Positions 7,475 to 45,975 of a DNA stretch of 64,000 nucleotides are shown piece by piece (position 1 is the stretch's first letter; each line of letters starts with the position of its first letter). The position numbers and the translations under genes were made by a program. A model generated the notes under the pieces. The model worked only from the letters and a program-made list of their open reading frames with translations, was not told the origin of the DNA and did no database searches. The stretch is taken from the sequence record OK570374; one strand, given 5' to 3'. Origin of the DNA: Escherichia phage UoN_LG358_1.

Positions 7475-7599
7475 TTTTCACCTAAGAATTATTCAAGAGC
7501 TTCGATTTTATTATCCAAAGGGCCGAAGCCCTTATTTTGTAAAAAGTTTTACTGTATAATACACGGTTACACAAATAATTAAAACAACTAATGGGTCCA

Positions 7600-11537: not shown

Positions 11538-12262
11538 TTATTCACCTTTGCTCTTCCTCTTATCCATCCTTCAGGAATAGTTTCAGAGGATTCAATTAAT
11601 TTATTCTTAAACCCGTCGTTTATACAAATTTTACCACGGGCTCCTTTATAATTTCGTGGTTTTATTTTATCAAAATTAGGAGTAAGCGAATACGACCATC
11701 TGAATCCGTAAGCATACTGGAAATGGCCTTCAGCGCAATATTTGATATTAGAACCGTTCCCATTAACTGATTTAGCAGCTTCGGATATAGAAGGAAATGT
11801 CTCTATGAAATTACCGTCTAAATCAAATTTGTGTATAGTTACAGAAACTTCTTCTGCCCTTTTAATTAATGGTAATTTAATCTTTTCTAAAGAATCTTTA
11901 GAGTGCTTTTTGCCAAGCATTCCCTTGGGGTGTGGGTTATTAGCTAAATATTCTTTCATATATTTAGAGGATTCTTCGGAAAATCTCTCTCGGTGCCAAG
12001 CATATAATCTATTATTAATTCTATTTCCGGATTTATCGGTGCACATTAAAGTGATAGCACATAATAAACCGTATGTTTTATGAATTTTATAAAGCAACTG
12101 ATGCGCAATAAAGTGTTCTCTTGCGCTCAATGCCACTAAGTTATCTTTATCATCTGAACCACCCATGCATCGGGGAATGATGTGGTGATTTTCGGTATAG
12201 CCGATGAAAGGAGAGGCTTTTCGCCTCTCCATTAAGCTATCATATATTCTTTGATAGTTCAT
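11534..12262 (-). mobile_element. free-standing HNH homing endonuclease (mobE-like) between nrdA and nrdB
   Basis: 242 aa; HNH motif HHIIPRCMGGSDDKDNLVALSAREHFIAH; start overlaps nrdA stop (TAATG); paralogous to ORFs at 43627 and 55322. Confidence 0.8.
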
Positions 12263-14585: not shown

Positions 14586-14611
14586 ACTAAAATGGCAGCC
14601 CGAAGGCTGCC
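14586..14611 (-). terminator. intrinsic terminator (GGCAGCC-UUCG-GGCUGCC + U-rich)
   Basis: hairpin followed by U-rich tract in - strand sense, upstream of nrdA. Confidence 0.5.
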
Positions 14612-15215: not shown

Positions 15216-16227
15216 CATTGTGTTCAGCTGAGGACGTTAATCTCAGCCCGGAATTTATCCAGCTGCATGTCACCATGCAGAGCAGACTATATCTTCATCT
15301 CAATGAGATGTCTATCGTTTCGAGCCACTTGGCCCTACTCCCTAAAGGGATAGTCGTTCGGCATTTAGCAATAAAACCAGTTCCATTTATCAGATTTTAC
15401 ACGGTATGTAACTAAGCCTGAAGAAATCTCAAAATGTCTAGCAGCATCTGCGGCGCATTCAAAAATAATACCATCACATGAAATTTTCTTAATATTAGAT
15501 GGCTTTCTGCCCTTTGCCTTGTTAGACAATATTTCTCGTGTTTCTTTTGAATGTTCTTTACCGAAGAACGGATTACTTTGTCCTGAACGGTCTCTACAAT
15601 TTGAACAAGTTTTAAATGCTGGGCTTATTCTTTTCCCGCACTTGCAAAACTTATGTTTTTCTGGGTTCCACCGTCCATTTAATTCACCTGGTTTACCATA
15701 AATTACTTTACGTCCATCAATACCAAGTTTTTCCATCTTAGCTTTAACAGTAGCAGCTCGCTTTTTTATAATTTCTTTCTTTAATGGATAATTAGTAAAA
15801 ACATCTCCAAAAGAAGCATCTGCGATGTTATAACCATTTTGTTTTGAATTTAGTGTTTTAATCCAGAAATTTTCTCGTTCAATAATTATATCTTTTTCGT
15901 ATGGAACTTCTTCCAATACAGAACATTCAAATACATTACCATGTTTATTATAAGACCGTTGGAGTTTTATAGAATGATGTGCATTATTAGATAAATCGGA
16001 AAAATGACGTTTCCATCTTTTATCAAAATCCTTTGCACTTCCAACATAAATCTTATTGTTTAAAACATTTTTAATTTGATAAATTCCACTTTTCATAAAC
16101 ACCTCTAAATTATAGAAGTATTTATTAAAGGGCGGTCCTACACATTTAGCACGGGATTGTCTACGAGAGAGGTTCCCCGTTTAGATAGATTACAAGTATA
16201 AGTCACCTTATACCCAGGCCTAAATTA
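15216..16227 (-). mobile_element. group I self-splicing intron in td
   Basis: interrupts TS coding sequence; intron 5' end reads UAAUUUAGGCCUGGGUAUAAGGUGACUUAUACUUGUAAUCUAUCUAAACGGGGAACCUCUC, near-identical to the T4 td intron start as recalled; exon 1 ends ...CUUGGGU. Confidence 0.85.
15365..16102 (-). CDS. intron-encoded GIY-YIG homing endonuclease I-TevI
   Basis: 245 aa; N-terminal GIY-YIG (SGIYQIKN...KIYVGSA), C-terminal ...KISCDGIIFECAADAARHFEISSGLVTYRVKSDKWNWFY as in I-TevI. Confidence 0.9.
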   Translation of the reverse strand: MFMKSGIYQIKNVLNNKIYVGSAKDFDKRWKRHFSDLSNNAHHSIKLQRSYNKHGNVFECSVLEEVPYEKDIIIERENFWIKTLNSKQNGYNIADASFGDVFTNYPLKKEIIKKRAATVKAKMEKLGIDGRKVIYGKPGELNGRWNPEKHKFCKCGKRISPAFKTCSNCRDRSGQSNPFFGKEHSKETREILSNKAKGRKPSNIKKISCDGIIFECAADAARHFEISSGLVTYRVKSDKWNWFYC

Positions 16228-20170: not shown

Positions 20171-20204
20171 CCAGAAACAACAAAGGAGCCCGTAGGCTCC
20201 TTTT
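20171..20204 (-). terminator. terminator hairpin downstream of gene 32 (GGAGCC-CGUA-GGCUCC)
   Basis: 6-bp GC stem flanked by U/A-rich tracts on both strands. Confidence 0.5.
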
Positions 20205-22358: not shown

Positions 22359-23277
22359 TAATATGATTAGTTAATTTAGAAAGACCCGACTTCACAAAGT
22401 AAGAATAAATCTTACCGCGAGGAGGTGTTTTGTATAATTCATAATATTCTATAATCGGTTTAGCAATTTCTTCTGGAATATAACTAAAATCGATAAGAAC
22501 TCTATTTTCAAGATAACGATTATATTCGGCTTCTGTTAAAAGCGATTTCATTCCTTCTGGACCAGCATCTAAGCACTGCTCGAGAAGCTTAGTTGAAAAT
22601 GAAGGAGTTCGTTCACCATCAATTTTAGTGTACCAATAATCAGAACGCACTTTAACAGACGCGACGTTATCTTTGCGATCGCCTTTTAATACTTTAGTTA
22701 AACATTCAAGTTCAGCGTCCCCGGTTTTGCATACAACGAATTTCTTCTGCATCGGTGACCATTGTTTAACATTAGGATATCTGTGAAGCTGTTTAAAGTC
22801 GCCATCAGAAGAAACAATCATAATTTTGTGTCCCTTCAAAGAAAGATGAGGAACAAGAATACCGATATGGTCATCCGCTTCATATTTGTCAATATTCATA
22901 ATAGTGTAAGGCATATATTTTTGAAATTCATCGATAATTGTGCGAATTCCAGTAAAATATCCTTCCCAATCCCATAATGACTCTTCCCGGCCTTGTTTAC
23001 GGTTCTTTTTATAATAATACGCAATATCGCGTCGCCAATAACCAGACTTAGCGTTATCAGTACAAATTACAACTTTTTCATAACCTTGTTTGCGAAATTG
23101 TAAAACATTCTTTTTAAGAGTGCTTAGAACCAGATGCCGCATCATTGCGGGTTGAATTTTCTCTTTATCAGAGAATGTATTCAGCGCTGCAGCCAAAGCA
23201 ATTTGGGATAAATCCACTAACACAACACCTTCTTTCGTTTGGTCTTCTTCGCCAAACAGACAATCTAGATTTGACAT
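22348..23277 (-). CDS. rnh: RNase H (5'-3' flap exonuclease)
   Basis: 309 aa; FEN-family acidic clusters; divergent from gene 34 as in T4. Confidence 0.85.
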   Translation of the reverse strand: MSNLDCLFGEEDQTKEGVVLVDLSQIALAAALNTFSDKEKIQPAMMRHLVLSTLKKNVLQFRKQGYEKVVICTDNAKSGYWRRDIAYYYKKNRKQGREESLWDWEGYFTGIRTIIDEFQKYMPYTIMNIDKYEADDHIGILVPHLSLKGHKIMIVSSDGDFKQLHRYPNVKQWSPMQKKFVVCKTGDAELECLTKVLKGDRKDNVASVKVRSDYWYTKIDGERTPSFSTKLLEQCLDAGPEGMKSLLTEAEYNRYLENRVLIDFSYIPEEIAKPIIEYYELYKTPPRGKIYSYFVKSGLSKLTNHINEF

Positions 23278-23310
23278 TGAATAATCTCATTCAGTAGTTA
23301 ACAGAACTAT

Positions 23311-23318
23311 TATAAATA
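23311..23318 (+). promoter_or_regulatory. T4 late promoter TATAAATA for gene 34
   Basis: exact TATAAATA 29 nt upstream of gene 34 ATG. Confidence 0.65.
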
Positions 23319-23346
23319 CATTCTATAATAGCAAACAGGAGCAATC

Positions 23347-26300
23347 ATGGCCGAATTAAAACGTAAATTCAGAGCGCAAGAAGGTCTGGACGCTGCGGGT
23401 GAGAAAGTCATCAATGTTGCCAAGGCAGATCGGACGGTCATGTCTGACGGTGTTAACGTTGAATATCTCATCCAAGAAAACACATTACAACAATATGACA
23501 GCACTCGTGGTTATCCTGCGCAGTTTGCAGTCATTTATGATAACCGCATTTGGGTATCAAATCGTGAAATTCCTGAACCAGCTGGTGATTTCACCGAGCT
23601 TTACTGGAATTCCGTTCGTACTGATGCAAAATGGAAAACAGTATCGTCTGGAACCACAAATTTGAAATCAGGTGATTTTATTTCGGCTGACACTGCCGGA
23701 AGAACGGATATGAAATTTATTCTTCCAAGTAATCCGCAAGATGGTGATACAATTTTTATTAAAGATATCGGCGGTCAGCCAGGTTACGCTTCTCTTACCG
23801 TAGATGCTTCAGTTCAATCAATACTTTGGCTTGGAAAACAAGTTAGAACTGTACAGATGACGCATCCATATTCACAAATGGTTTTTGTTTTTAGCAATCG
23901 TTTGTGGCAGCTTTACATAAGTGATAATGAAAGAGTAGCAATTACTATTACTCCCGCATCTATTCATGAAGCACAAGCTAATGAATTCTTAGTTCGTCGC
24001 TATACTTCTGGCGCTCCGGTACGTGTTAAATTACCTAAGTATGCCAACAATGGTGACATGATTAATTTCACTGATTTAGATGCTATGAATCCGCAATTTC
24101 ATCTTTATGTTGATACTTATGATGAGAATACAAGCATTGGTTCAGTTGGAACTCACCAGTTAATTTCACGCACTTCAGGTGATGGATTTATAATATTCGA
24201 TGATTCTGAAAACTTGTGGCGCGTATGGGATGGTGATCTTCGTACTCGTCTTCGTATTATTCGTGAAGACACTATTGTTAGGCCTAATGACCATGTTATG
24301 GTATTTGGTGTAAATAACACTGAAGTAAAAACAGTGACTGTCACTTTACCACCAACTCCTGCAATTGGTGATACTGTAAAAATTTCTCTGAACTATATGA
24401 GAAAAGGTCAAACTGTTAATATAACTGCATCTGGCACAGATACAATTGCATCAAATGTTGCTTTACTTCAATTTCCTAAGCGTTCTGAATATCCGCCAGG
24501 AACAACTTGGGTACAAAACAAGACAATTTCATTTAATGGCGATACGTCTTATGTTCCAGTATTAGAACTATCTTACATTGAAGATAGTTCTTTAAAATAT
24601 TGGGTTATTGCTGAAAATAATCCTACAGTTGAACGAGTCGATTCAACAAGCGATTCAACCCGTAATCGTCTTGGTGTAATTGCTTTAGCTACTCAAGCTC
24701 AGGCAAACGTAGATTATGAAAATAATCCAGAAAAAGAAAGAGCTATAACTCCAGAAACTTTGGCTAATCGTATTTCTACTAAAATTCGCCGAGGTATTGC
24801 TCGTTTGGCTACTCAAGCTGAGCTTGAAGTTAAAACTGGTGGAACTCTACTTGATGACGTTATCGTTACTCCGAAAGTTTTGAATGACCGTATTGCTTTA
24901 GAAGACAGACAAGGACTTGCTGAATTAGCAACTCAGTCGGAAACTAATGATGGTGTAGACGATTCAAGAATTGTCACTCCTAAGAAACTTAATAATCGTA
25001 AAGCTTCTGAAATTTTAACTGGTATTATCGCTTTAGTAAAAACTGGTATAAGCACTTTAGCTGGTATAAATCGTGATACGAAAGGCACAAACGTATATGA
25101 CTATACTGATAATGAAAAAGCTGTAACTCCTGCTTCTTTGTTTGAAAATAAAGCTACATATACTTCGCAAGGCGGTTCTTATTTAGCTACAGAAACTGAA
25201 GTTATTCAAGGTACTCCTCATGACCCTAAAGTACCTACAGTTGTAACTCCGGTTGAATTACAAAAGAAAACTGCTACTGAAACTCGTATTGGTTTTACTG
25301 AAACTGCTACTCAAGTTGAAGTTGACGCAGGTACAGATGATTTCAGATATGTTACTCCTAAAAAATTAAATGGACGTAATGCTACTGAAACTTTAACTGG
25401 TATTTCACGAATTGCTACAGACTCTGAATTTTCAGCTGGCACATTAGATAATGTTATTTCAACTCCGTTGAAAATTAAAAATTACTTTTCTTCTGTTGCT
25501 CGTCATTCTGTTATTCCTGAATCTGGACTAGTTGAAACAGGGAACTTCTGGGACCATTATAACCTCGATATTCAAAAAGCATCTGAAACCCAACGAGGCA
25601 CACTCGCGTTGGCAACTCAGGTGTTGACTGATGCTGGTGTTGATGATACTACAGCTGTTACTCCTAAAAAGCTTCAAGCTAAAAAGACATCTGAAACTTC
25701 TGAGGGTATTATTCAAATAGCAACTCAGGCTGAGACTGTAGCTGGTATCGTTGGTAATAAAGCTGTTCCGCCAAAGCATTTGAAGTATGCTATACAGGTA
25801 CAAGCGGATTGGGAAGCAACACCTTTACGTAGAGGCCCAATTAAATTAACGGAAGGCGCATTAAGTTTTGTCGGTGATAAAGTATTTGGTTCGGGTGTTC
25901 AATTTAATGCTTTAACCGGTCTCTATGAAAACGATGATGCTAAATTAGCGTTAGGAAATTATTTCAAATCAGGTTATGCTGTATCTCCGTTTGAAATGAA
26001 CAAGACACTTCAAAACTTTTTGCCGATAAATGCAATTGCTGTTAATTCACACAAGTTAGATAATCTTGATTCAACCCAGTTCATTCGAAGAGATATCGAT
26101 CAGACAGTTGAAGGTTCTTTAACGTTAACCAAACAAACCAACACCAGTGCACCTCTAGTATCCTCTAGTACTGCGAAGTTTGTTAGTATGTTGGTTACCA
26201 CAGAAGCTACTATCGGTGACTCTACAAGTCACTCTGTGATTAATTTGGATGCGAAAACCAATAAATGGGTTATTGATGGCCAAGCTGATTCTTTATACTT

Positions 26301-27168
26301 GGATTTCACAGCAGGCGCTACTGATGTCCTTAAGCTGAAACGTGATGGTGATGTTAACGTAGCTCAAACACTTTATGCTGGAAATAAAGTAGATGCTTCT
26401 AAAGGCTTTAGCGTTGAAGGTGGTACAATGGTTATTAACCCTACCGCCACTAATATTCAAATTGGTTCTCAATCTAAAGCTACCAATATCCAAACAACGG
26501 ATGCTGGTAATTTACAAGTAACTGACCCGTCTGGCTCGTCTGTAGTTCTGACTACGAAAAACGCAATTACTATCGTCGGTAATAATTTCGTTAATAAAGC
26601 CGGAGACTCCATGTTTGGCCGATTGGATGTTTCTGCTGCTGTGAGCGCGGTTATTACTCAGGCTAAAGCTACTGGTCCTCTTACTAATGAAACGGTAGGT
26701 AGTTGGTCTTCTGAAATAATTGACCCGTTAATTTATAACACTTTGCCTGGATTTATGGTTCCGATTTATTCAGATGAAGACGGCGGGAAAGTTATAGTTG
26801 GATACGTTGATTATGACCCGGCAGATGCTTCTAAACGTGGTATAAGAGCTCCAGGTATACTGTCTCAGATTGGAACGAGTAAAAAGGAATTTACATATCA
26901 AATATGGAACCCTCGTCCAGCTACGGCTTATCCAGATGCTAAATCTTCTCTGTGGATTAGAACTTATGACCCAGTTAAAGGCGCATTTAACGAATGGGGA
27001 AGAGTTTATACTACGGAAGCACCAGTTACATCTGCTGAAATAGGAGCTGTTTCTACTGCTGGTTCTGCGTTTAATAACTTAACAATCAGAGATTGGTTAC
27101 AGATTGGTAATGTTCGTATTACTCCTAATCCTGCAACGCAATCTGTTGATTTTACTTGGGTGCCTTAA
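23347..27168 (+). CDS. 34: long tail fibre proximal subunit gp34
   Basis: 1273 aa; internal repeats (LATQAE...VTPKKL); SD AGGAG upstream; synteny. Confidence 0.95.
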   Translation: MAELKRKFRAQEGLDAAGEKVINVAKADRTVMSDGVNVEYLIQENTLQQYDSTRGYPAQFAVIYDNRIWVSNREIPEPAGDFTELYWNSVRTDAKWKTVSSGTTNLKSGDFISADTAGRTDMKFILPSNPQDGDTIFIKDIGGQPGYASLTVDASVQSILWLGKQVRTVQMTHPYSQMVFVFSNRLWQLYISDNERVAITITPASIHEAQANEFLVRRYTSGAPVRVKLPKYANNGDMINFTDLDAMNPQFHLYVDTYDENTSIGSVGTHQLISRTSGDGFIIFDDSENLWRVWDGDLRTRLRIIREDTIVRPNDHVMVFGVNNTEVKTVTVTLPPTPAIGDTVKISLNYMRKGQTVNITASGTDTIASNVALLQFPKRSEYPPGTTWVQNKTISFNGDTSYVPVLELSYIEDSSLKYWVIAENNPTVERVDSTSDSTRNRLGVIALATQAQANVDYENNPEKERAITPETLANRISTKIRRGIARLATQAELEVKTGGTLLDDVIVTPKVLNDRIALEDRQGLAELATQSETNDGVDDSRIVTPKKLNNRKASEILTGIIALVKTGISTLAGINRDTKGTNVYDYTDNEKAVTPASLFENKATYTSQGGSYLATETEVIQGTPHDPKVPTVVTPVELQKKTATETRIGFTETATQVEVDAGTDDFRYVTPKKLNGRNATETLTGISRIATDSEFSAGTLDNVISTPLKIKNYFSSVARHSVIPESGLVETGNFWDHYNLDIQKASETQRGTLALATQVLTDAGVDDTTAVTPKKLQAKKTSETSEGIIQIATQAETVAGIVGNKAVPPKHLKYAIQVQADWEATPLRRGPIKLTEGALSFVGDKVFGSGVQFNALTGLYENDDAKLALGNYFKSGYAVSPFEMNKTLQNFLPINAIAVNSHKLDNLDSTQFIRRDIDQTVEGSLTLTKQTNTSAPLVSSSTAKFVSMLVTTEATIGDSTSHSVINLDAKTNKWVIDGQADSLYLDFTAGATDVLKLKRDGDVNVAQTLYAGNKVDASKGFSVEGGTMVINPTATNIQIGSQSKATNIQTTDAGNLQVTDPSGSSVVLTTKNAITIVGNNFVNKAGDSMFGRLDVSAAVSAVITQAKATGPLTNETVGSWSSEIIDPLIYNTLPGFMVPIYSDEDGGKVIVGYVDYDPADASKRGIRAPGILSQIGTSKKEFTYQIWNPRPATAYPDAKSSLWIRTYDPVKGAFNEWGRVYTTEAPVTSAEIGAVSTAGSAFNNLTIRDWLQIGNVRITPNPATQSVDFTWVP

Positions 27169-28355
27169 TGGAAAAAATGATGGCGAGTTTTGGTAATGGA
27201 TATACCAAAACTCAAGTTATTTCTGAAAATAATTCCATCAAATACAAAATTTCATTTGCTGCGGGGTCGGTATTTTCGACCCCATCTTCTGCATATTTCA
27301 CCTTTCAGGATACTCCTATAGGTGACCAGCAAGATGGTGCTGGTATAAATGTTAGAATTTTTAACCCAGCATTGAATACTGTATCTACAAAGAAAACATT
27401 CTTATTAACGGCTAATGATGCTGATCCAGGAAATACCGCGTTTATTGATTATTTGGCATCGTTTACACAAGATAATACAAATTTGTTAATATTCACTACA
27501 TCAGGTGATATTAAAACTAGTACTTTAATAGAGAATAAATTTAAGTCAATTTATTCAACTATGTGGCCTAATAAATGGATAACTTCACGATATAGCTGTA
27601 CTTATTGCGGATTGTTTTCTATTAAAAATAACAAAATGATTGCTGAAAACGTAACTTATTCTGATGGGGTTCTTCGTGATGAAGATATAAGGCCTGCGTT
27701 AGAATTTGTTTACGATAAAGCAAATGATATAGGAGCTACCGGATTTTCTTATAGAGCGTTGGAAGATTTTAATGAATATACTAGTTCTTCTGCTACAATA
27801 AAAAGATATCCAATAGATTCAGTGTCAGGTGTAGACATTAGTACTATCGGAATAACACCAGGAGATATTCTTTTTTGGTCATTTGAATTTTTACACGGAG
27901 ACAATATGCCTCCAGAAGTACCCGGAACAAATGACAATAAAATAAGAATAGAAATAAGATGGTTGAATTCAGCTGGAAATTGGATTAAATCTGTTAACGT
28001 AGATTCTAATCATGCAAATGCTGGAAAATGGATAAAGCATGAGCAAACCGTTGAAGTTCCAGCTGACGCAGCTCGAATAGTTGTTCTTGCTTCTAAAACT
28101 ACTCCTAGCGATACTGTCGGAACAGGCGGGGTCCGCAACATGATATTAACTGAGACTTCGAGAGCAGTTGAACCAATGACTTCTCCGGCGGCAATATCGG
28201 TCAACGGAATTCGTTTGAATTCTATAGTATCCGGCACTTACCCAACATTGCTTATTTTACCAGCAAATGAATTTGATTCATCGGGTAAACCATTACCTGG
28301 CGAAGATATTTCTGGTATAATTTATAGCTCCGATTGGAGAGAGTTTGAAAAATAA
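27168..28355 (+). CDS. 35: long tail fibre hinge connector gp35
   Basis: ORF starting at ATG overlapping gene 34 stop (TAATG); track start is an upstream TTG. Confidence 0.8.
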   Translation: MEKMMASFGNGYTKTQVISENNSIKYKISFAAGSVFSTPSSAYFTFQDTPIGDQQDGAGINVRIFNPALNTVSTKKTFLLTANDADPGNTAFIDYLASFTQDNTNLLIFTTSGDIKTSTLIENKFKSIYSTMWPNKWITSRYSCTYCGLFSIKNNKMIAENVTYSDGVLRDEDIRPALEFVYDKANDIGATGFSYRALEDFNEYTSSSATIKRYPIDSVSGVDISTIGITPGDILFWSFEFLHGDNMPPEVPGTNDNKIRIEIRWLNSAGNWIKSVNVDSNHANAGKWIKHEQTVEVPADAARIVVLASKTTPSDTVGTGGVRNMILTETSRAVEPMTSPAAISVNGIRLNSIVSGTYPTLLILPANEFDSSGKPLPGEDISGIIYSSDWREFEK

Positions 28356-28357
28356 TT

Positions 28358-28380
28358 AAGGGCCGCAAGGCCCTTTTTTC
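28358..28380 (+). terminator. intrinsic terminator after gene 35 (AAGGGCC-GCAA-GGCCCUU + U6)
   Basis: GC-rich hairpin followed by TTTTTT on + strand. Confidence 0.6.
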
Positions 28381-28395
28381 TTTTATAAAATAGCA

Positions 28396-28403
28396 AATAA
28401 ATA
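28396..28403 (+). promoter_or_regulatory. candidate late promoter for gene 36 (AATAAATA, 7/8 match)
   Basis: near-consensus late motif 25 nt upstream of gene 36 ATG. Confidence 0.35.
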
Positions 28404-28427
28404 TGAATATACTCTAGAGGACTTCAT

Positions 28428-29093
28428 ATGGCCGATTTAAAATCAAATAGTACAGTAGGCGGAGCTCCTATATGGCATAAAGGAAATTTTCCTTTATCTC
28501 CAGTAGGTGACACTCTGCTTTATAAGACTTTTAAAGTCTACACAGAATTCGATAAACCTCAGGCAGTAGATAACGATTTTGTTTCTAAAGCTGCTGGAGG
28601 AGAATATTTAAAAAACGTTAATTTTAAAGAAGGTTTATCATTTAGTGATAAAGCTGGTGCTCCGATTTTTATTGGAGTTCCTAAAAATACCACGGCGGCA
28701 GCTACTTATACAGCATCGATAAAATTAACTGGGTCATTCGCTTTAGAAACTCCCGATAATAAGCCATTTATCATATTCAACCCAATAGAAACATTCGGTC
28801 CTGATATATACCGGTTGACTGTCATGGGTGATATGATTGCTCGTCAAATTTATGACGAATCAGGTAGAGTTTTTTCTCCAGGAAATACTCCATCTAAAGC
28901 GCAGGTCGGTTTAGGATTAGTTGATAACGCAAAACAAGTTCAACTTGAGCAATCAGCCGTACAAACAATGACAGGTGTTTTGGCTGCACCGAACTTTATA
29001 AGTACTAATCCGGCGACAGCTGATAACCACGTAGCTCGTTTTGACCAGATTGTAATAAAAGACTCAATTCAAGATTTTGGATATTATAGCTAA
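28428..29093 (+). CDS. 36: long tail fibre distal connector gp36
   Basis: 221 aa ORF; synteny. Confidence 0.85.
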   Translation: MADLKSNSTVGGAPIWHKGNFPLSPVGDTLLYKTFKVYTEFDKPQAVDNDFVSKAAGGEYLKNVNFKEGLSFSDKAGAPIFIGVPKNTTAAATYTASIKLTGSFALETPDNKPFIIFNPIETFGPDIYRLTVMGDMIARQIYDESGRVFSPGNTPSKAQVGLGLVDNAKQVQLEQSAVQTMTGVLAAPNFISTNPATADNHVARFDQIVIKDSIQDFGYYS

Positions 29094-29101
29094 GAGGACA
29101 T

Positions 29102-31321
29102 ATGGCTACTATAAAGCAAATTCAATTTAAAAGAACAAAAGTAGCAGGCTCTCGTCCTACTGCAGCTCAACTCGCTGAAGGCGAACTTGCTATTAACTTA
29201 AAAGACCGCACTATTTTTACAAAAGATGATTTGAACCAAATTATCGATTTAGGTTTTGCTAAAGGCGGCGAAGTATCAGGAGATATCACGCAGGTTGGTA
29301 ATTATACCCAAACCGGAAATTATAATCTAACTGGTGATGCTAATGTATCTGGTAAAATTACCACCAACGCATTAGATGTCAGTACTATTTCAGACCTAAG
29401 ACAAACTAACTTTAGACCTGTATTAAGCACAACAGCGGGTTCTAATTTTATTATATCAAACTCCGGCGGTTTAATCAAACCAATTACTTTGACAGTAGAA
29501 GGAACAGCAACAAGCTCAAACACTATTCTTCGTCATACTGTTGATACTACTGTGGCTGCTAGCGGATTTATTGATTCAATTAATGTTTCTCTTAATCCCA
29601 CTGACGGGGCTCTGGTTACAGCTCTTAATGGTACGGTGAATATCGGTAGTTCCCTTAAAACTCCTAAACTTTCTGTTTCCGGCGCCGAAACTATTTTAGG
29701 AGATTATAGCATTTCAATCGGTGATAATGATACCGGATTTAGATGGTCTTCTGATGGAATATTCAATACAGTAACTAATGGAACTTCGATTTACACTCAT
29801 TCTAATGGGATTACTTATTCTAACCGTCCAACACATTTCCGCTATACATCAGATAATGATGCTATGACGCCAACCGCCGTGTTTGATGGCGGTTATTTAG
29901 CTTTGGTAGATACTTCCACTGATGGCAATGCTTATGGCGACGCAATGAGCTATCTCGGTTATAAAGATGCTGCTGGTTATAGTTTTTATTTCCGTGGCGG
30001 TGGAACATTTAATGTAGCTTCTAAAGGCGGATTTAATGTAGATACAGCTGCTGCTTTTTCCAAAACGGTTGATGTATCTGATATTCTAACATGCAGCTCT
30101 ATTATTAAAGCTAAAGGCCCAGGTCAAGTTGACGTTACTAGTGCTGGTAATATTGCACTTGGCGGAACTATTCAATGGGTGCCTTCGTATATGAGCGGAA
30201 GCCCAAGTAAAGCACGAGATACTATAGCTATGGCGGCGTGGGGCGATGGGGCGCAACGAGTAAACGTACTTGAGACATCTGATTCATCTGGCTGGTGGTA
30301 TTATATTCAGCGAGCGTCTCCTAGTATTTCTCCTACCGGTGTAGAAGGTCGTATTAACGGGACGTGGCAAGCTTCAGATTTAATTTCTGATAATACTCTT
30401 AAAGTGGCAGGAGCTTTCACCTGCACTAGAAGAAACTCAGCGTCATGGGGTGATAACGCTGGATGGTATGCAGGAGCAACTCCTGTTGTAGTTAATCAAG
30501 GAAACATCCAAGAAATGGACCCGGGCGTAGGAGGTTTTTATCCTGGATTTGCCCAATATAACGTGAATGGAACCGGATGGAAACAAGCGTTTATGCTAGG
30601 TTTATTAGGTCAAGGTGTACAAAGATGGCGGCGAGGAGTATTAGCTCTTAGAGGTGATGGTCCCGTTGATGCTGGACAACAAATAGCACGTTGGTATTTT
30701 AGTCAAGAAGACGGAAGTTTAGAATCAGAAGGTCCACTGAAAGCTCCTAGCGTTCAGGCCGGTCAAATAACATCTTTTGGTGTGAACGTTACAAACGCGT
30801 TAGGTAGTGCGTCTATAGCCATTGGCGATAATGATAGCGGGTTGCGCTGGGTCAGTGACGGTATTATACAACTTATGGCGAATGGAGGACCTGTTGCAAC
30901 ATGGGATTCGGGTTCATTTTATACGGCAGAGGGAAAAGGGCTTTCATCTAACGGAGCAATGTGGTGCCGCGATAACTTAGACGTCAATGATGTTTATATT
31001 CGTTCTGACATTAGAGCTAAATCAAATATCAAACTGATTGAAAATGCTCAAGAAAAATCTAAGAAATTAGGCGGTTACACTTATCTGCTGAAAAACACTG
31101 AATCTGGTGAAATAAAACCTTCTGCTGGATTGATAGCTCAAGAAGTTCAAGATGTTTTACCTGAGTTGGTCACTAAAGACAAAGACACTGGGTATTTGCG
31201 TCTGAACTATAACGGTATTATTGGTTTAAATACTGCTACAATCAACGAACATACAGATGAAATTAATTCACTTAAATCTGAAATCGCTGAACTTAAAGCA
31301 CTTATTAAATCATTAATGTAA
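29102..31321 (+). CDS. 37: long tail fibre distal subunit gp37 with C-terminal intramolecular chaperone-like domain
   Basis: 739 aa; N-terminus MATIKQIQFKRTKVAGSRPTAAQLAEGELAINL; C-terminus contains DVYIRSDIRAKSNI and coiled-coil tail typical of auto-processing IMC (S74-like) domains. Confidence 0.85.
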   Translation: MATIKQIQFKRTKVAGSRPTAAQLAEGELAINLKDRTIFTKDDLNQIIDLGFAKGGEVSGDITQVGNYTQTGNYNLTGDANVSGKITTNALDVSTISDLRQTNFRPVLSTTAGSNFIISNSGGLIKPITLTVEGTATSSNTILRHTVDTTVAASGFIDSINVSLNPTDGALVTALNGTVNIGSSLKTPKLSVSGAETILGDYSISIGDNDTGFRWSSDGIFNTVTNGTSIYTHSNGITYSNRPTHFRYTSDNDAMTPTAVFDGGYLALVDTSTDGNAYGDAMSYLGYKDAAGYSFYFRGGGTFNVASKGGFNVDTAAAFSKTVDVSDILTCSSIIKAKGPGQVDVTSAGNIALGGTIQWVPSYMSGSPSKARDTIAMAAWGDGAQRVNVLETSDSSGWWYYIQRASPSISPTGVEGRINGTWQASDLISDNTLKVAGAFTCTRRNSASWGDNAGWYAGATPVVVNQGNIQEMDPGVGGFYPGFAQYNVNGTGWKQAFMLGLLGQGVQRWRRGVLALRGDGPVDAGQQIARWYFSQEDGSLESEGPLKAPSVQAGQITSFGVNVTNALGSASIAIGDNDSGLRWVSDGIIQLMANGGPVATWDSGSFYTAEGKGLSSNGAMWCRDNLDVNDVYIRSDIRAKSNIKLIENAQEKSKKLGGYTYLLKNTESGEIKPSAGLIAQEVQDVLPELVTKDKDTGYLRLNYNGIIGLNTATINEHTDEINSLKSEIAELKALIKSLM

Positions 31322-31325
31322 TAAA

Positions 31326-31339
31326 GGGCCTTCGGGCCC
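31326..31339 (+). promoter_or_regulatory. stable stem-loop (GGGCC-UUCG-GGCCC) in 37-38 intergenic leader
   Basis: perfect 5-bp GC stem with UUCG tetraloop, no U-tract, immediately before SD GGAGG of gene 38. Confidence 0.4.
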
Positions 31340-31350
31340 TGGAGGTTATT

Positions 31351-32130
31351 ATGGCAGTTGTAGGAATTCCAGGAAATATAGGGTCATCCGCCAAGGCAGA
31401 AACAGGACAAGCAAGCATGTCAGCTGCTGCGGTACAATTAAGACTACCTGCTACCGATGTATGGATGTCGCAATTTGCTGGTCTCTCTAAAGAAGAAATT
31501 TGGGAATGGACTGGTCCAAATCACAGTTTTAATAAAGATTGGTTAATAGGCGAACTTCGTAATAGAGGCGGTACTCCTGTGGTAATTAATATAAGAGCTG
31601 ACCAGGTTTCGCATACAGCAGGAGTTCCCTTGTTTGAATTTCCTGGAGACCTTCCAAACGCGTATGTTACACTCAACATTTATGCTACTATATACGGTAG
31701 AGGCGGTAATGGAGGAGGTCGCGGTAATGGAGATAAAGGCGGCGATTGTATTCATAACTGGATAGGGAATCGGTTAAGAATTAATAACCAAGGATGGATA
31801 TGCGGCGGTGGCGGCGGCGGCGGCGGGTCATATTGGGACCCAGGTTGGGGAAATCCGCAATACGGAGCCGGTGGTGGCGGCAGACCATTTGGTGTAGCTC
31901 CTTGGACTAATTTTAATACCCCAGCAACCAATGGTACACTCGAAGCGCCAGGCCATGGTTCAAGAGGAGGCAACTTTGGCGGTGGCGACGGTGGTCAGAC
32001 TGGCGCAAATGGCGGAGGTGCTTGGGGCCCGTCTGGAGAATTATATGGCGGTGGCGCATCTGGACACGCAGTAGTAGGAACCTCTCCTCAATGGATAAAC
32101 ACTGGTAATATTGCTGGTCCTTGGTTATAA
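31351..32130 (+). CDS. 38: receptor-binding adhesin gp38 (T2-type, glycine-rich motifs)
   Basis: 259 aa; several poly-Gly motifs (GGGGGGGGS, GGGG, GGGDGG) separated by variable segments. Confidence 0.8.
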   Translation: MAVVGIPGNIGSSAKAETGQASMSAAAVQLRLPATDVWMSQFAGLSKEEIWEWTGPNHSFNKDWLIGELRNRGGTPVVINIRADQVSHTAGVPLFEFPGDLPNAYVTLNIYATIYGRGGNGGGRGNGDKGGDCIHNWIGNRLRINNQGWICGGGGGGGGSYWDPGWGNPQYGAGGGGRPFGVAPWTNFNTPATNGTLEAPGHGSRGGNFGGGDGGQTGANGGGAWGPSGELYGGGASGHAVVGTSPQWINTGNIAGPWL

Positions 32131-32133
32131 ATA
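32126..32133 (+). promoter_or_regulatory. T4 late promoter TATAAATA for holin gene t
   Basis: exact TATAAATA overlapping gene 38 stop codon, 17 nt upstream of t ATG. Confidence 0.5.
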
Positions 32134-32149
32134 TCTCTAAGGAGATAAT

Positions 32150-32806
32150 ATGGCTTCAAAAATTTCGTTACCAATAACGGATATAATTTTTGGAGTATGG
32201 GACAGAGTTTTTAAAGATAATGCATCCGGGAGGGTTTTAGTCTCCCGGGTTGTTGTTGTAATTATTTTCTTTGTACTTGGATTAGTTTGGTCAAAAAGCG
32301 ATGCAATACTAACCACTTACAGAGATTCGTCTTACGATACGTACGCGAAAATTATACAACAAGAACGCGAATCACGCTTTGAAACAACTGCTCTGGAACA
32401 GCTTCAAATAGTTCACATATCCAGCGGAGCAGATTTCACTGCTGTGTATTCGTTTAGACCCAAAAATTTAAATTATTTTGTTGATTTAATAGCGTATGAG
32501 GGTAGATTACCTTCAACCGTTTCGGAAAAAAGTCTTGATGGTTTCCCGGTTGATAAAACTACTAATGAATATTCTACACATTTAGGAGGAAGAGTTTTTA
32601 AATCATCACAAGAATTTGCTTTTCTACCGTCAAAGAAAAAAACAACTGAATTAAAATACATGTTCAGTTGTCCTTACTTCAATTTAGATAATATATATGC
32701 CGGGACTGTTTCTATGTACTGGTACGATGGAGCTCCAAGTGTAAGCCCGGAACGACTTGAATCGATATGCGGTCAAGCCGCTCGTACATTAGGAAGGTCA
32801 CGTTAG
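32150..32806 (+). CDS. t: holin
   Basis: 218 aa; one N-terminal TM segment; ...LEQLQIVHISSGADFTAVYSFRPKNLNYFVDLIAYEG...CPYFNLDNIYAG matches recalled T4 holin T. Confidence 0.9.
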   Translation: MASKISLPITDIIFGVWDRVFKDNASGRVLVSRVVVVIIFFVLGLVWSKSDAILTTYRDSSYDTYAKIIQQERESRFETTALEQLQIVHISSGADFTAVYSFRPKNLNYFVDLIAYEGRLPSTVSEKSLDGFPVDKTTNEYSTHLGGRVFKSSQEFAFLPSKKKTTELKYMFSCPYFNLDNIYAGTVSMYWYDGAPSVSPERLESICGQAARTLGRSR

Positions 32807-35084: not shown

Positions 35085-35363
35085 TTAGTTGTAAAATTTT
35101 ACGATAACTGCATTACCGTCTTTGAAGAGACCGTATTCAACACCATCAATTGTGATGATTTTACAAGGATACAAACAGTTGTTAATGAAAACTTTAGATT
35201 TGCCACGAACTGCTTTAATTTCAGTCCCGACACGGTTTGCATCAACTGTTTCTTTAAAGTTATTGTAGTAAAAACCATCTTCTTTAATTACAGAAACAGT
35301 CATTACACCACCGAAAGAACGATTGAAAGCGATAAGTTTAGTAGCCATAATTTTATTCTCCAA
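35085..35363 (-). CDS. hypothetical protein (92 aa)
   Basis: ORF with early promoter upstream. Confidence 0.45.
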   Translation of the reverse strand: MENKIMATKLIAFNRSFGGVMTVSVIKEDGFYYNNFKETVDANRVGTEIKAVRGKSKVFINNCLYPCKIITIDGVEYGLFKDGNAVIVKFYN

Positions 35364-35397
35364 GTTGTTTTGTTTACCATTTATTTGGTATGAAGTA

Positions 35398-39214: not shown

Positions 39215-39239
39215 TAAAGAAAAAGGGACCGAAGTCCCT
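39215..39239 (-). terminator. intrinsic terminator after rIIB (GGGAC-UUCG-GUCCC + U5)
   Basis: hairpin with UUCG loop and U-tract in - strand sense. Confidence 0.6.
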
Positions 39240-39266
39240 TAGAATTAAATTAGCGATGCGACGGTA

Positions 39267-42890: not shown

Positions 42891-42917
42891 CTAAAAAGGG
42901 ACTCCCGAAGGAGTCCC
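42891..42917 (-). terminator. intrinsic terminator (GGGACUCC-UUCG-GGAGUCCC + U-run)
   Basis: same hairpin sequence as at 2905-2924; U-tract in - strand sense. Confidence 0.55.
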
Positions 42918-43112
42918 TGTTATTACCATGTGGCTTTTGACACCATACCTGTAACTTTCTTCAAAGAGTTGTCCGGCTGACGAACACGAATAGTAGCTAT
43001 ATCGCCAGGGAGAGGAAGAGCATCTCCCCACATATAACCGAAACTTCCATCTACAAGCGTTACCCAGATTTGTGACATATACTCTCCTATACGGGCGGAA
43101 TGCCCGTATTAT

Positions 43113-43460
43113 TTATTCACTCATCCAGACCTTGCGAGGAGCCGCATCATTACCCATAACCATTTCAAAAAGTTCTTTCCAATTTGGCGGCAATGACACT
43201 ACGTCATAAACCGGTTGCTGAATAACTCGTTCATATTCATCTTCTTCCAAAGAACCAAGTCCTTTGATGTAACGAAGTTTCCATCCAGCAAGTTTATCTT
43301 TTTCAGCTTCATATTCGGCGGCATTGTAATACCATTTTTGTTCAGAGCCCTTTGACATAATAATCACTGGGGTTTTAACAAACCGAATACGTCCTTCTTC
43401 GAACAATTTCGGCCAATTAGCAAAGAACGCTAGCAGGCTTGGATAAATTGACCCTGTGCC
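43113..43460 (-). CDS. 60: gp60 (topoisomerase II subunit) distal coding segment, starting at landing codon GGC 43460..43458
   Basis: ...TGSIYPSLLAFFANWPKLFEEGRIRFVKTPVII...RYIKGLGSLEEDEYERVIQQPVYDVV...ELFEMVMGNDAAPRKVWMSE matches recalled T4 gp60 after the bypass; has no ATG, the track uses an in-gap TTG. Confidence 0.7.
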   Translation of the reverse strand, partial: GTGSIYPSLLAFFANWPKLFEEGRIRFVKTPVIIMSKGSEQKWYYNAAEYEAEKDKLAGWKLRYIKGLGSLEEDEYERVIQQPVYDVVSLPPNWKELFEMVMGNDAAPRKVWMSE

Positions 43461-43505
43461 AAATATCTCTATTGTGAGGTATATCAATGATTAGCCCGAA
43501 GGCTA
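43461..43505 (-). other. 60: untranslated coding gap of gene 60 (translational bypass), begins with UAG inside a UUCG-capped hairpin
   Basis: mRNA GAU GGU UAG CCUUCGGGCUAAUCAUUGAUAUACCUCACAAUAGAGAUAUUU GGC ACA GGG UCA; near-identical in layout to the T4 gene 60 gap as recalled. Confidence 0.6.
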
Positions 43506-43640
43506 ACCATCAACATCAGCATCAGTCATGATGGCAATGTTTTTATAATTCAAAGAAGAAGTTGATGTACGACGTACAATTGTCTGGGCTTTATATGATT
43601 TCATATCAATTTCAGTTTCTTTAACTTTAGCAAATTTCAT
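43506..43640 (-). CDS. 60: gp60 proximal coding segment (45 codons, ends at take-off codon GGU)
   Basis: MKFAKVKETEIDMKSYKAQTIVRRTSTSSLNYKNIAIMTDADVDG then UAG; resembles recalled T4 gp60 N-terminus including the basic nascent-peptide signal. Confidence 0.65.
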
Positions 43641-44425
43641 TTAAAACCTCATAAAATTTTTCATCAGGAGTCCAACCGTTTTTAAACTGATTGAACGCGA
43701 TTTTGAACAGTTTCGTTTTGATAGTTATATTATTAACCGTTTTCCATTTAGCAATTCCGGTTTTCTTATAACTAACTGGGTCATAAACGTTAGCATACCA
43801 ATCATAAAGGGACGGAATCAACTTAACTGCGTCTGGATTGGTTTTAGATTTGTTATACCAAGGTTTAGATTTTTCAAGGGCGGCTGCTACTTTTGTAGCG
43901 TTTAACGTGTTACCAACTCCGCATAAACCAAGGTCCTTTATTAAAGGGTCGTCCGTTCTTAGTCTATAGGTTGTGTTATCTTTATCCTTGTAAACTCCGT
44001 ATCCTTTCACACCTTCAAATTTTCTTCCGTAATTTACGCCAACCCAATCTTCTTCAGTGTATTCGCCTTTCGTCAGTAATCGACATTCTCCAGTTTCTTT
44101 ATTTCTAAGTAAAATTTTGTCACGCATGAACTCAGCAGACCAATCTGAAATCATATTAACATAATTTTTCCTGGCTATTTCATAAAGTTTAGAACGAAAT
44201 ATTGTTCCAGAATTCATTATCCGGTTCAAAGCATAAGACATTTCTTTGTTTTTATGAATTTTAAACAATAACCAGTGCGCAATAAAATGTTCGCGATATG
44301 TCAATTTTACCAAATTATCTGAAGTATCTAATCCACCCATGCTTCTTGGAAGTATATGATGAATTTCTCCTTTAACCGGCGGAACCCTGGTTTTACCCCG
44401 GGAAATTAGTTTTTCTATAATTCAT
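43627..44425 (-). pseudogene. mobA-like HNH homing endonuclease, frameshifted
   Basis: ATG at 44425 (MNYRKTNFPG, stop) is +1 out of frame with the HNH body (…KTRVPPVKGEIHHILPRSMGGLDTSDNLV…); frames cross at a CCCGGGG run; the in-frame ORF of the track starts after the first His of the HNH motif. Confidence 0.55.
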
Positions 44426-45975
44426 ACTAAGTCTTTTACTTTTTTCCAGACGCCATCAATAAAAATTTCGTCATTGATATTAACTACAATATCTTCACCG
44501 GCAACATTTACAGTATACCATTGTTCGCCGGCTTCAACTTCCGTGAATGGGTCTTCACCAATGACTAACCCAGTAATTGCACAAATATCAAAGATTTCTT
44601 TGTTTTTCAAAGCATCACCTGCAGACATTCCCCAGGTGTTCATCACTTTACCACGTAATGGATAACCGCCATGAAGGGCACGGTCACGAGTATTAATTAG
44701 ATAACCAATAGCAGAATCACCTTCTGTTAAAAACAAAGTTGTTTCTACTTTATCATTACCATATTCGCCAGCTTTGATGTGTTTATGAACTTTAGCTTTG
44801 GCCGCCTTTTTCGCTGCTTTGGTTTCTGCTGCTTTCTCTGCCGCTAGTTTACGTGCTAATGCAGCTTCAATAATCGGCATTAAAATAGCATCAGATTTCA
44901 TAATCTGATTAGAAATTTTCTTTGCATCGAGATTTAAGTGAGATTTAATTTCGCCCCATGGACTTGTAAGACGCTCTTTGGTTTGCGAGTCAAAGCGCAA
45001 GTTACTCATATCTCGAATAAACATCAACACAGTAAAACACTCTTTAATACGAGCTTTGTTTACTTCAATTTTGTGTTTACGTTTAATAGCCGGAATTAAT
45101 TCATTAGCAATTTCGTCAATAACATAATCAATATGCGAACCGCCATTCTTTGTATGAATGTTGTTAACATAAGTCATTTGACGAAAACCATCTGGAGAAT
45201 TACCTATAGCCAAAGAATAATTTTCTTCATCAATAATGATAGCATTTTTATCATACTGCTTAGAATATTTTTTGAAATTACTATCAACTTTTTTATTGTT
45301 AAATTTAAATTCAATTTTTGGATAAACGACTGCCAATGTCTGTAAACGGTCCAACATAATATCAAAATAAACATCATCAAAATTGTTCATTTCGAAATGG
45401 CTAAAATCTGGAATAAATTCTACCTTAGTTCCTTTATAAGAGGATTTTTTGGATTTCCAAGAAACATTGTCAGAATTATTGCTACAAGAAACTGTTAATT
45501 CATTTTCTCCATCAGATGTTGTACCTTTAAACATAACAGAGAAAATATTAGTCAATGAAGAACCAACACCGTTTTGCCCGCCAGTTTTACGCTCTTCATC
45601 AGCTCCAAAGTTTCCGCCTGCCTTAGTTTTCGTCCATGCTGCTACTGGACCAGGAATTTCTTCACCTTCAGGAGTAGTAACCATAGCCTGTGGAATTCCA
45701 CGGCCATTATCTTCTACGGTCACTTTGCTTGTGGAAGAATCGATATTGACTGAAATTTTATTAGCAAATTTAAAACTTGTACGGATAGCTTCATCAACAG
45801 AGTTATCGATAATTTCATCAATAAGTTTGAGAACGCCAGCTACGTATTGTACCCGCTTAAATTCGCCAAAAACAAAACGCTCATGAAATTCGTTAGATAC
45901 ACTTCCGATGTACATTCCAGGACGCTTAAGAACGTGTTCCTTGTCAGAGAGCATTTGAATTTTATTTTCAATCAT
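44422..45975 (-). CDS. 39: DNA topoisomerase II large subunit gp39 (GyrB ATPase-like)
   Basis: 517 aa; GHKL ATPase motifs (EDNGRGIP, GGQNGVGSS); stop overlaps HNH ATG (ATGA). Confidence 0.9.
   Translation of the reverse strand: MIENKIQMLSDKEHVLKRPGMYIGSVSNEFHERFVFGEFKRVQYVAGVLKLIDEIIDNSVDEAIRTSFKFANKISVNIDSSTSKVTVEDNGRGIPQAMVTTPEGEEIPGPVAAWTKTKAGGNFGADEERKTGGQNGVGSSLTNIFSVMFKGTTSDGENELTVSCSNNSDNVSWKSKKSSYKGTKVEFIPDFSHFEMNNFDDVYFDIMLDRLQTLAVVYPKIEFKFNNKKVDSNFKKYSKQYDKNAIIIDEENYSLAIGNSPDGFRQMTYVNNIHTKNGGSHIDYVIDEIANELIPAIKRKHKIEVNKARIKECFTVLMFIRDMSNLRFDSQTKERLTSPWGEIKSHLNLDAKKISNQIMKSDAILMPIIEAALARKLAAEKAAETKAAKKAAKAKVHKHIKAGEYGNDKVETTLFLTEGDSAIGYLINTRDRALHGGYPLRGKVMNTWGMSAGDALKNKEIFDICAITGLVIGEDPFTEVEAGEQWYTVNVAGEDIVVNINDEIFIDGVWKKVKDLV

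Follow-up and report, generated by a model that had tools for sequence, protein, structure and literature searches.

We analysed a 64,000-nucleotide stretch of Escherichia phage UoN_LG358_1 (OK570374.1, listed as a Gelderlandvirus in a table of PMC13119998; the whole stretch is called the window below) around genes 37 and 38 of its long-tail-fibre cluster. Both genes lie on the plus strand and are followed by the holin gene t, and the order 37 - 38 - t is the same in STP4-a, S16, T2 and T6. The list of open reading frames (ORFs) placed gene 37, with 739 amino acids, and gene 38, with 259, where an earlier note on this DNA (the original prediction) had put them. An exact-sequence look-up found gp34, gp36 and gp37 deposited as 'hypothetical proteins' of Escherichia phage UoN_LG358_1 (UFK27105, UFK27107 and UFK27108). 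The evidence points to a T2/S16-type fibre tip, in which gp37 would be the distal fibre subunit with a C-terminal intramolecular chaperone (IMC) and gp38 the adhesin that caps it. The locus is made up of the following features.

29102-31321 (+): gene 37, 739 amino acids, distal long-tail-fibre subunit (ORF list)
29102..31003 (+): portion of gene 37 for the predicted mature gp37, residues 1-634, the trimer subunit (ORF, phrog_1699, 6F45_A, alignment)
31004..31321 (+): C-terminal IMC of gene 37, Peptidase_S74, residues 635-739 (105 amino acids), plus stop (PF13884)
31325..31340 (+): intercistronic hairpin A-GGGCC-(UUCG)-GGCCC-U (sequence, folding)
31351-32130 (+): gene 38, 259 amino acids (ORF list)
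31351..31491 (+): N-terminal gp37-attachment domain of gene 38, about residues 1-47 (PF21721 Gp38_N)
31492..32130 (+): receptor-binding domain (RBD) of gene 38 plus stop codon (PF05268, PDB, AlphaFold2)
31804..31827 (+): Gly8 run, gp38 residues 152-159, equivalent of glycine-rich motif 3 (codon reading)

The gp37 subunit and the gp38 adhesin

gp37 matched the PHROGs family phrog_1699, 'long tail fiber protein distal subunit', with an E value of 7e-185. That it ends in an S74-type IMC, as originally proposed, was borne out by the domain search, in which PF13884 Peptidase_S74 covered residues 635-691 (E 9.6e-14; 51.9 bits, with a cut-off of 22; the full profile, positions 1-58), by a conserved motif and by structure prediction. 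The IMC takes up the last 105 of the 739 residues, an extreme C-terminal position. Residues 565-738 matched the S16 gp37 construct of PDB 6F45 (E 1.9e-42), residues 565-634 aligning with the S16 gp37 tip (6F45_A), and the IMC alone still matched 6F45_A (E 5.9e-22), with a weak match also to 7DC3, the autoprocessing domain of MyRF (E 0.015). The segment DVYIRSDIRAKSNI begins at residue 630, and S635-D-I-R-A-K640 stands at the domain start, conforming to the pattern S-D-x-R-x-K; its S, D, R and K did not vary across the 11 gp37 tails aligned, which came from Gelderlandvirus, Tequatrovirus and Dhakavirus phages and included that of S16. In an AlphaFold2 model of residues 560-739, the IMC part reached a predicted local distance difference test (pLDDT) score of 83-96 and showed short helices and beta-hairpins, with a final helix of 36 residues (703-738). 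A Foldseek search with this model returned the MyRF ICA domain 7DC3 (probability 1.0, E 1.4e-4), the S16 gp37 tip and 3GW6, 'Intramolecular Chaperone' (probability 0.9); as a monomer built from a shallow 11-sequence alignment, the model is moderate evidence for the fold.

In S16 gp37, autocleavage takes place within DLNVS^SDRRIKK, between the two serines (the caret marks the cut), and frees a 113-residue IMC; the T2-like Yersinia fPS phages carry DVYIR^SDGRLKI at the equivalent gp37 position (PMC7917993). Because the window sequence aligns with both sites, we predict a cut at DVYIR634^S635 that would yield a 634-residue mature protein, terminating in ...CRDNLDVNDVYIR634, and a 105-residue IMC, with Ser635 and Lys640 as the predicted catalytic residues. 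In 6F45, the modelled gp37 chains comprise 68-72 residues versus 204 in the deposited sequence, which fits loss of the IMC.

The original prediction also held that gp38 is an adhesin capping the fibre, and Pfam, PHROGs, the PDB search, structure prediction and the S16 literature all agreed with it. gp38 matched the full profiles of PF05268 GP38 (E 1.7e-68, positions 1-218 of 218) and PF21721 Gp38_N (E 1.1e-14, positions 1-40 of 40), as well as phrog_2056, 'tail fiber protein; host specificity' (E 3.8e-91, profile positions 1-267). Among known structures it matched S16 gp38 (6F45_D, E 2.6e-91) and the RBD of PP01 gp38 (9V85, E 2.6e-32). An AlphaFold2 model based on 84 homologues (pLDDT 91.1; predicted template modelling score, pTM, 0.83) showed a three-domain fold of attachment domain, beta-helix and polyglycine-II (PGII) sandwich. 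Foldseek aligned this model to 6F45_D with E 2.8e-27, template modelling (TM) scores of 0.86/0.89 and 62% identity, so that the expected likeness to S16 gp38 held at the level of structure (TM 0.86-0.89); against 9V85, the PP01 RBD, TM was 0.76/0.89.

In the modelled RBD, two Gly-rich extensions (about residues 116-133 and 152-238) join a beta-helix core and form the PGII sandwich with its hypervariable loops. Ten Gly-rich motifs of the form G(2-8) lie within residues 116-238, where 48 of 123 residues are glycine, and S16 gp38 has the same number of motifs (PMC6851490). Across the 84-sequence alignment, the glycine positions were invariant or nearly so and the intervening segments variable. 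Identity to S16 was likewise uneven, at 0.90-1.00 in the beta-helix and 0.43-0.58 in the parts belonging to the PGII sandwich and the hypervariable segments. Virion-bound receptor binding by gp38 has been shown in the literature for S16, T2 and PP01. Overall, sequence and model support gp38 as a T2/S16-type fibre-capping adhesin rather than a T4-type chaperone, and the E values of the domain matches in gp37 and gp38 lie well outside what chance would give.

Two further observations concern the RBD itself. Its hypervariable loops in residues 152-238 (31804-32064) contain 10 aromatic residues versus 3 in S16. Among the deposited phages, a search of 5.8 billion protein clusters turned up this RBD type, besides in the phage itself, in STP4-a and SEA1 only.

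The N-terminal domain of gp38 belongs to the MAVVGIPGNIGSS class and retains one of the three S16 tryptophan 'prongs', W38. The prong positions read N9, S22 and W38, the replaced residues 9 and 22 being encoded at 31375-31416. Three tryptophans were present in 74 of 95 gp38 sequences compared, whereas the N/S/W combination was limited to the sequence that the window has in common with STP4-a; other gp38 lineages carry RAR, NQK or YYY, with no tryptophan at any of the three positions. The prongs have been described as highly conserved for S16 gp38 but are not strictly family-defining; among the sequences compared they are frequent without being general, and in the comparison the N/S/W pattern reads as a family variant, not an anomaly.

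Among the Gelderlandviruses, gp37 tails and gp38 N-terminal domains fell into two linked classes. In the first (S16, STML-198 and SEA1), gp37 reads ...DLNVS^SD and gp38 starts with MAVQGPWVGSS. In the second (the window, STP4-a, Melville, CGG4-1 and the Dhakavirus VR5), gp37 reads ...DVYIR^SD and gp38 starts with MAVVGIPGNIGSS, VR5 having W instead of N. The RBD assorted independently of this interface class: SEA1 combines an S16-class N-terminal domain with a window-class RBD (99-100% identical), and Melville gp38 combines a window-class N-terminal domain with an S16-class RBD, the crossovers lying within the conserved segment SKEEIWEW...NHSFNKDW. Such RBD swapping is the already known modular evolution of gp38 adhesins; that the two interface classes co-segregate while the RBD swaps independently is a modest but useful point.

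Mosaic relation to Salmonella phage STP4-a

The comparison with STP4-a draws on the genes upstream of gene 37 and the region downstream of gene 38, with these further features.

23347-27168 (+): gene 34 (six-frame ORF list)
27156-28355 (+): gene 35 (six-frame ORF list)
28428-29093 (+): gene 36 (six-frame ORF list)
30931..32697 (+): tip module near-identical to STP4-a (mismatch list)
32126..32133 (+): T4-type late-promoter consensus TATAAATA (pattern search)
32150-32806 (+): holin gene t (PF11031, E 6e-80)

gp38 of the window is 100% identical to gp38 of Salmonella phage STP4-a, and the accessions of the two proteins are filed together as one sequence. The backbone is 97-100% identical to STP4-a over most of the 64 kb, and STP4-a was also the best megablast match for the locus in the 'phages' collection, at 90.7%. 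Within the tip module, a single mismatch separates the two phages over 1,767 nucleotides, a synonymous change at 31569. The module contains the last 24 residues of mature gp37, the IMC, the hairpin, gene 38 and most of the holin gene t. Upstream of it, the shaft block at 22500-30930, from gene 34 to about codon 610 of gene 37, is 76-87% identical to STP4-a and forms the largest divergent patch. At the protein level, gp37 is 87% identical to STP4-a over residues 101-610 and 100% over residues 611-739. The nearest database relative of the shaft block was CGG4-1, at 89.8%.

Because most of the remaining window is 97-100% identical to STP4-a, the simplest history suggested by these identities is an STP4-a-like genome in which an 8.4-kb fibre shaft block has been replaced. 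The opposite direction, in which recombination recently brought gp38, t and a gp37 tail of the STP4-a type into a phage with a divergent shaft, is possible yet less parsimonious, and we regard it as unlikely while giving it more weight than any other alternative discussed here. A sharp jump from about 85% to 99.9% identity at 30931 and the swapping of tips or RBDs evident in SEA1 and Melville would fit such a transfer, but the rest of the window is for the most part STP4-a-like, and the closest shaft relative in the database, CGG4-1, is only 89.8% identical.

STP4-a has been reported not to lyse E. coli, and the window phage was deposited under the name 'Escherichia phage'. If these host labels reflect real host ranges, host range in this lineage could depend on some factor besides the gp38 tip, because identical gp38 proteins occur on phages named for different hosts and the main difference is the shaft. 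We consider this decidedly doubtful, as it draws on one record name and one host-range statement. Were it true, the candidates would include the shaft allele and the geometry of the fibre, but also further receptor-binding proteins and factors acting after adsorption, and the adaptive event would be shaft swapping rather than adhesin swapping. UoN_LG358_1 and STP4-a, which carry the same tip on different shafts, are a pair that could be used for probing the influence of the shaft on host range.

The intercistronic hairpin and the Gly8 run

The original prediction had described a UUCG-capped hairpin between gene 37 and the Shine-Dalgarno (SD) sequence of gene 38, and GGGCC-UUCG-GGCCC is present there at 31326-31339; RNAfold adds an A-U pair, extending it to 31325-31340. 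The hairpin starts 3 nucleotides past the stop codon of gene 37, and directly after it comes GGAGG (31341-31345), the SD sequence of gene 38, leaving 5 nucleotides to the ATG. Nine of nine phages compared had a GC-rich hairpin of 6-8 base pairs directly 3' of the gene 37 stop codon. Their stems differ yet stay complementary (GGGCC/GGCCC in the window, GAGCC/GGCUC in S16, AGAGGGC/GCCCUCU in T2 and AGGGGC/GCCCCU in T6), and their loops are mostly UNCG (UUCG, UACG or UCCG). For this comparison the nine spacers were folded singly, as a MAFFT alignment left the divergent hairpins out of register.

C(UNCG)G hairpins with stems of at least 5 base pairs were strongly enriched in the window, with 10 found where 0.23 were expected (200 shuffles gave at most 2). 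All ten lie on the locally coding strand, and nine are outside ORFs of at least 60 amino acids. Besides the hairpin between genes 37 and 38, the window scan gave nine with stems of 5-9 base pairs, eight of them intergenic, at the following positions.

1866-1879, 2904-2925, 7518-7533 (-): UNCG hairpins
14594-14611, 20182-20203, 39223-39240 (-): UNCG hairpins
42897-42918, 43491-43506, 55606-55621 (-): UNCG hairpins

One 22-nucleotide hairpin, AGGGACTCCTTCGGGAGTCCCT, is present twice in identical form, 40 kb apart (2904 and 42897). A fold test on 76 nucleotides around the 37/38 hairpin gave z = -0.35 relative to shuffles, which is not informative, since shuffling redistributes the small number of G and C residues. 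Since the stems keep pairing through compensatory changes and the class is enriched genome-wide, the 37/38 hairpin is best read as a real, selected RNA structure of a genome-wide class, not special to this locus.

Could the hairpin be a terminator or attenuator that lowers expression of gene 38 relative to gene 37, matching a 3:1 stoichiometry of gp37 to gp38? It is GC-rich, follows the gene 37 stop codon directly in all nine phages with compensatory changes, and no consensus late promoter was found by pattern search between genes 37 and 38. A terminator is also annotated at this place in the fPS-65 record, but on the opposite strand. In the window, no T-run follows the hairpin and the terminator scan gave no call; nine similar hairpins occur elsewhere, eight of them in other intergenic spacers, so that the structure is not specific to this gene pair; and the gene 38 SD sequence, 1 nucleotide downstream, needs transcripts that read through. 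We therefore think that termination here is improbable and favour a generic element.

Consensus late promoters TATAAATA were found by the pattern search at 23311, before gene 34, and at 32126, before t, where the site overlaps the gene 38 stop codon; the SEA1 record has a late promoter annotated at the same position as the latter. The spacer between genes 35 and 36 (28358-28400) contains a terminator-like hairpin, AAGGGCC-GCAA-GGCCCTT, followed by a T-run, and downstream of it TATAAAATA is one base off the T4 late-promoter consensus. Given this terminator-like hairpin and the lack of a promoter between genes 37 and 38, genes 36-38 are probably co-transcribed.

Within gene 38, the Gly8 codons 152-159 read GGC GGT GGC GGC GGC GGC GGC GGG, with (GGC)5 at 31810-31824. 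The original prediction had located a perfect GGC run at about 31800-31825; the position was right to within a few bases, whereas the 24-nucleotide run is not perfect, as it contains GGT and GGG. The equivalent S16 segment, '151-GGGGGGGG-158', corresponds to helix 3, the PGII helix at the centre, in which the hydrogen-bond network is saturating (PMC6851490). The run was eight glycines long in seven of seven Gelderlandvirus genes, with differing synonymous codons (S16, GGT GGC GGA GGC GGC GGC GGT GGC; CGG4-1, GGA GGC GGC GGT GGT GGC GGT GGT). Because all seven genes keep eight glycines with different codons, this constancy despite codon drift reads as a signature of purifying selection on length.

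The run had also been put forward as a slippage site, that is, a contingency locus at which replication slippage at (GGC)5 would vary the number of Gly codons, adhesin loop length and host range. This reading, too, has points in its favour. (GGC)5 is the sole triplet repeat of at least four units in the 64 kb, and at least five consecutive GGC in eight Gly codons would arise by chance with a probability of about 0.017, given the codon usage of gene 38; the repeat is even longer in SEA1, and across genera the Gly run is mostly 6-9 residues long (95 sequences compared). Natural variation nevertheless gives slippage no support. Length is exactly eight in all seven Gelderlandvirus genes despite the synonymous differences, no indel in the run was found among 126 near-full-length gp38 sequences (ten 90%-identity clusters), the run forms a buried central PGII helix with saturated hydrogen bonds, and a tract of five units is short for slippage to be efficient. 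Of the 11 RBD differences that separate the window from SEA1, 2 are in the Gly run versus 0.4 expected, which is not persuasive, and both are substitutions. Slippage-driven length variation is thus not supported by the sequences compared, and we hold it to be very improbable. With a length-constrained Gly8 helix, engineering should aim at the loops and not at the glycine runs. In gp38 of Yersinia phage PYps47T (278 amino acids, P0104), an 18-residue tandem duplication, GGGGGGYYSPFSQMRLTF, covers hypervariable loop B together with a portion of the long Gly run, the sole event in these clusters to affect the run; its sequence reads as recombination between glycine motifs, not triplet slippage.

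Elsewhere in the window, an Rfam scan at gathering thresholds and a tRNA scan gave no match over the whole stretch, including none to a group I intron. A 242-amino-acid ORF at 11534-12262 (-), with NUMOD1 and a weak HNH match, probably encodes a homing endonuclease; flanked by nrdB-like and nrdA-like ORFs, it falls in a stretch without alignment to STP4-a. An I-TevI-like GIY-YIG endonuclease ORF lies at 15365-16102 (-) (DNA-binding domain, E 3.5e-30), and in STP4-a the matching position has a 'thymidylate synthase' fragment on either side, an arrangement suggestive of a td intron. Two further stretches, 43460-44550 and 35100-35380, did not align to STP4-a, and the unaligned stretches included ORFs of 237 amino acids (43627-44340, -) and 92 amino acids (35085-35363, -) without a Pfam match. 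A match to ILEI in gp35 (E 0.004, under the Pfam cut-off) was discarded as noise.

The proposed tip and its known relatives

Together, these data suggest that genes 37 and 38 code for the distal tip of a Gelderlandvirus long tail fibre of the T2/S16 type, and we put the probability of the whole explanation, including the way in which the tip would work, at about 0.9. gp37 would be made as a 739-residue precursor whose last 105 residues, the Peptidase_S74 IMC, drive trimerization of the fibre. By homology to S16, the IMC would then remove itself by a cut after DVYIR634 mediated by Ser635 and Lys640, baring a docking surface. A single copy of gp38 would dock on the end of the gp37 trimer through its small N-terminal helical domain and display the beta-helix and PGII 'sandwich', whose five distal hypervariable loops would contact the outer-membrane receptor. 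The Gly8 run, encoded around (GGC)5, would be the central structural helix of the sandwich, fixed in length, and the glycine motifs may diversify the adhesin by offering short homologies at which loops recombine or are duplicated, rather than through triplet slippage. Most likely, the C(UUCG)G hairpin would be a generic element of mRNA structure or stability just before the gene 38 ribosome-binding site. In its present form, the phage would carry a divergent shaft allele joined to a tip module essentially identical to that of STP4-a. The 3:1 architecture of gp37 and gp38 and the cleavage site are taken from the S16 literature (PMC7917993; PMC6851490).

Several points weigh against this explanation. 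Cleavage, stoichiometry and receptor binding are inferred from the relatives S16 and T2, and the direction of recombination, shaft replaced or tip acquired, from parsimony. With one of the three tryptophans that plug into gp37 kept, the details of docking may differ from those in S16. As z = -0.35 indicates, support for the hairpin is conservation and enrichment, not thermodynamics, and its role at the 37/38 junction is putative. The weakest alternative is that gp38 is a T4-type non-virion assembly chaperone, so that gp37 itself would bind the receptor; although the N-terminal 58 residues match phrog_1121 (a 181-residue profile, E 2.4e-16) and homologues appear in part of the database records under the name 'distal long tail fiber assembly catalyst', this is barely credible, because the resemblance to phrog_1121 is confined to these 58 residues and gp37 carries its own IMC and hence has no need of a gp38 chaperone, and also because the full-length matches go to the adhesin family (PF05268 and phrog_2056), S16 gp38, to which gp38 is 62% identical with TM 0.86-0.89, was crystallized on the gp37 tip, and a 259-residue protein with ten Gly motifs is unlike the short profile. 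The T4-type class as a whole (about 180 residues, without a Gly-rich RBD, and with a gp37 lacking an IMC) does not describe this locus, with its PGII domain, 259-residue gp38 and IMC.

The type of locus favoured here is already known, and this exact adhesin has already been deposited, from STP4-a. Architecture, fold, the role of the glycine motifs and IMC cleavage are established for S16, T2 and PP01, and for the biology of these fibres the present locus adds little. The public record labels the genes 'hypothetical protein', and gp37, as distal subunit with an S74 IMC, and gp38, as adhesin, can be named with confidence.

The closest structural parallel is the S16 tip, which, as presented in PDB 6F45 and in the account of Dunne et al. 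2018 cited in PMC6851490, has the same architecture, a trimeric gp37 with an autocleaving IMC and a monomeric gp38 cap. S16 gp38 has an N-terminal attachment domain, beta-helix, PGII sandwich and Gly8 central helix, all as in the window; its beta-helix core is 90-100% identical and its hypervariable loops 43-58% identical to ours. The receptor of S16 is OmpC, and the loop set of the window differs from that of S16. Differences are also found at the interface: the gp38 N-terminal domains are 49% identical, with three Trp prongs in S16 versus one in the window, and S16 gp37 ends DLNVS^SD versus DVYIR^SD, with 27% identity over the last 24 mature residues. The two IMCs are 50% identical, with 113 residues in S16 versus 105 in the window.

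gp38 proteins of the T2/T6/PP01 type (Tequatrovirus, 9V85) belong to the same Pfam families and are 45-53% identical overall to the window protein, whose beta-helix core is S16-like, not T2-like. The T2-like fPS phages have the cleavage-site context of the window, DVYIR^SD, and over the IMC and the first part of gene 38 the window is about 79% identical in nucleotide sequence to Dhakavirus and Tequatrovirus phages. Further afield, the endosialidase/K1F-type IMC (3GW6) and the MyRF ICA domain (7DC3) have in common with the window gp37 the Ser/Lys motif S-D-x-R-x-K, a C-terminal position on a trimeric fibre and a predicted fold combining short helices and beta-hairpins with a long C-terminal helix. 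In sequence, the window IMC is distant from both (24% identity to MyRF, 11-12% to 3GW6), and it serves a T-even long tail fibre, where the others have a tailspike or a transcription factor as cargo.

C(UUCG)G hairpins were reportedly found in T4 intercistronic regions by Tuerk et al. in 1988. The T4 hairpins resemble the window set in their GC stem, the C-G closure of the UNCG loop, their intergenic position and the coding strand. A particular feature of the window is that the 37/38 hairpin abuts the gene 38 SD sequence. Overall, the nearest known genome is that of STP4-a, with the gene order 34-35-36-37-38-t of the window and a different allele of genes 34-36 and gp37 residues 1-610 (76-87% nucleotide identity).

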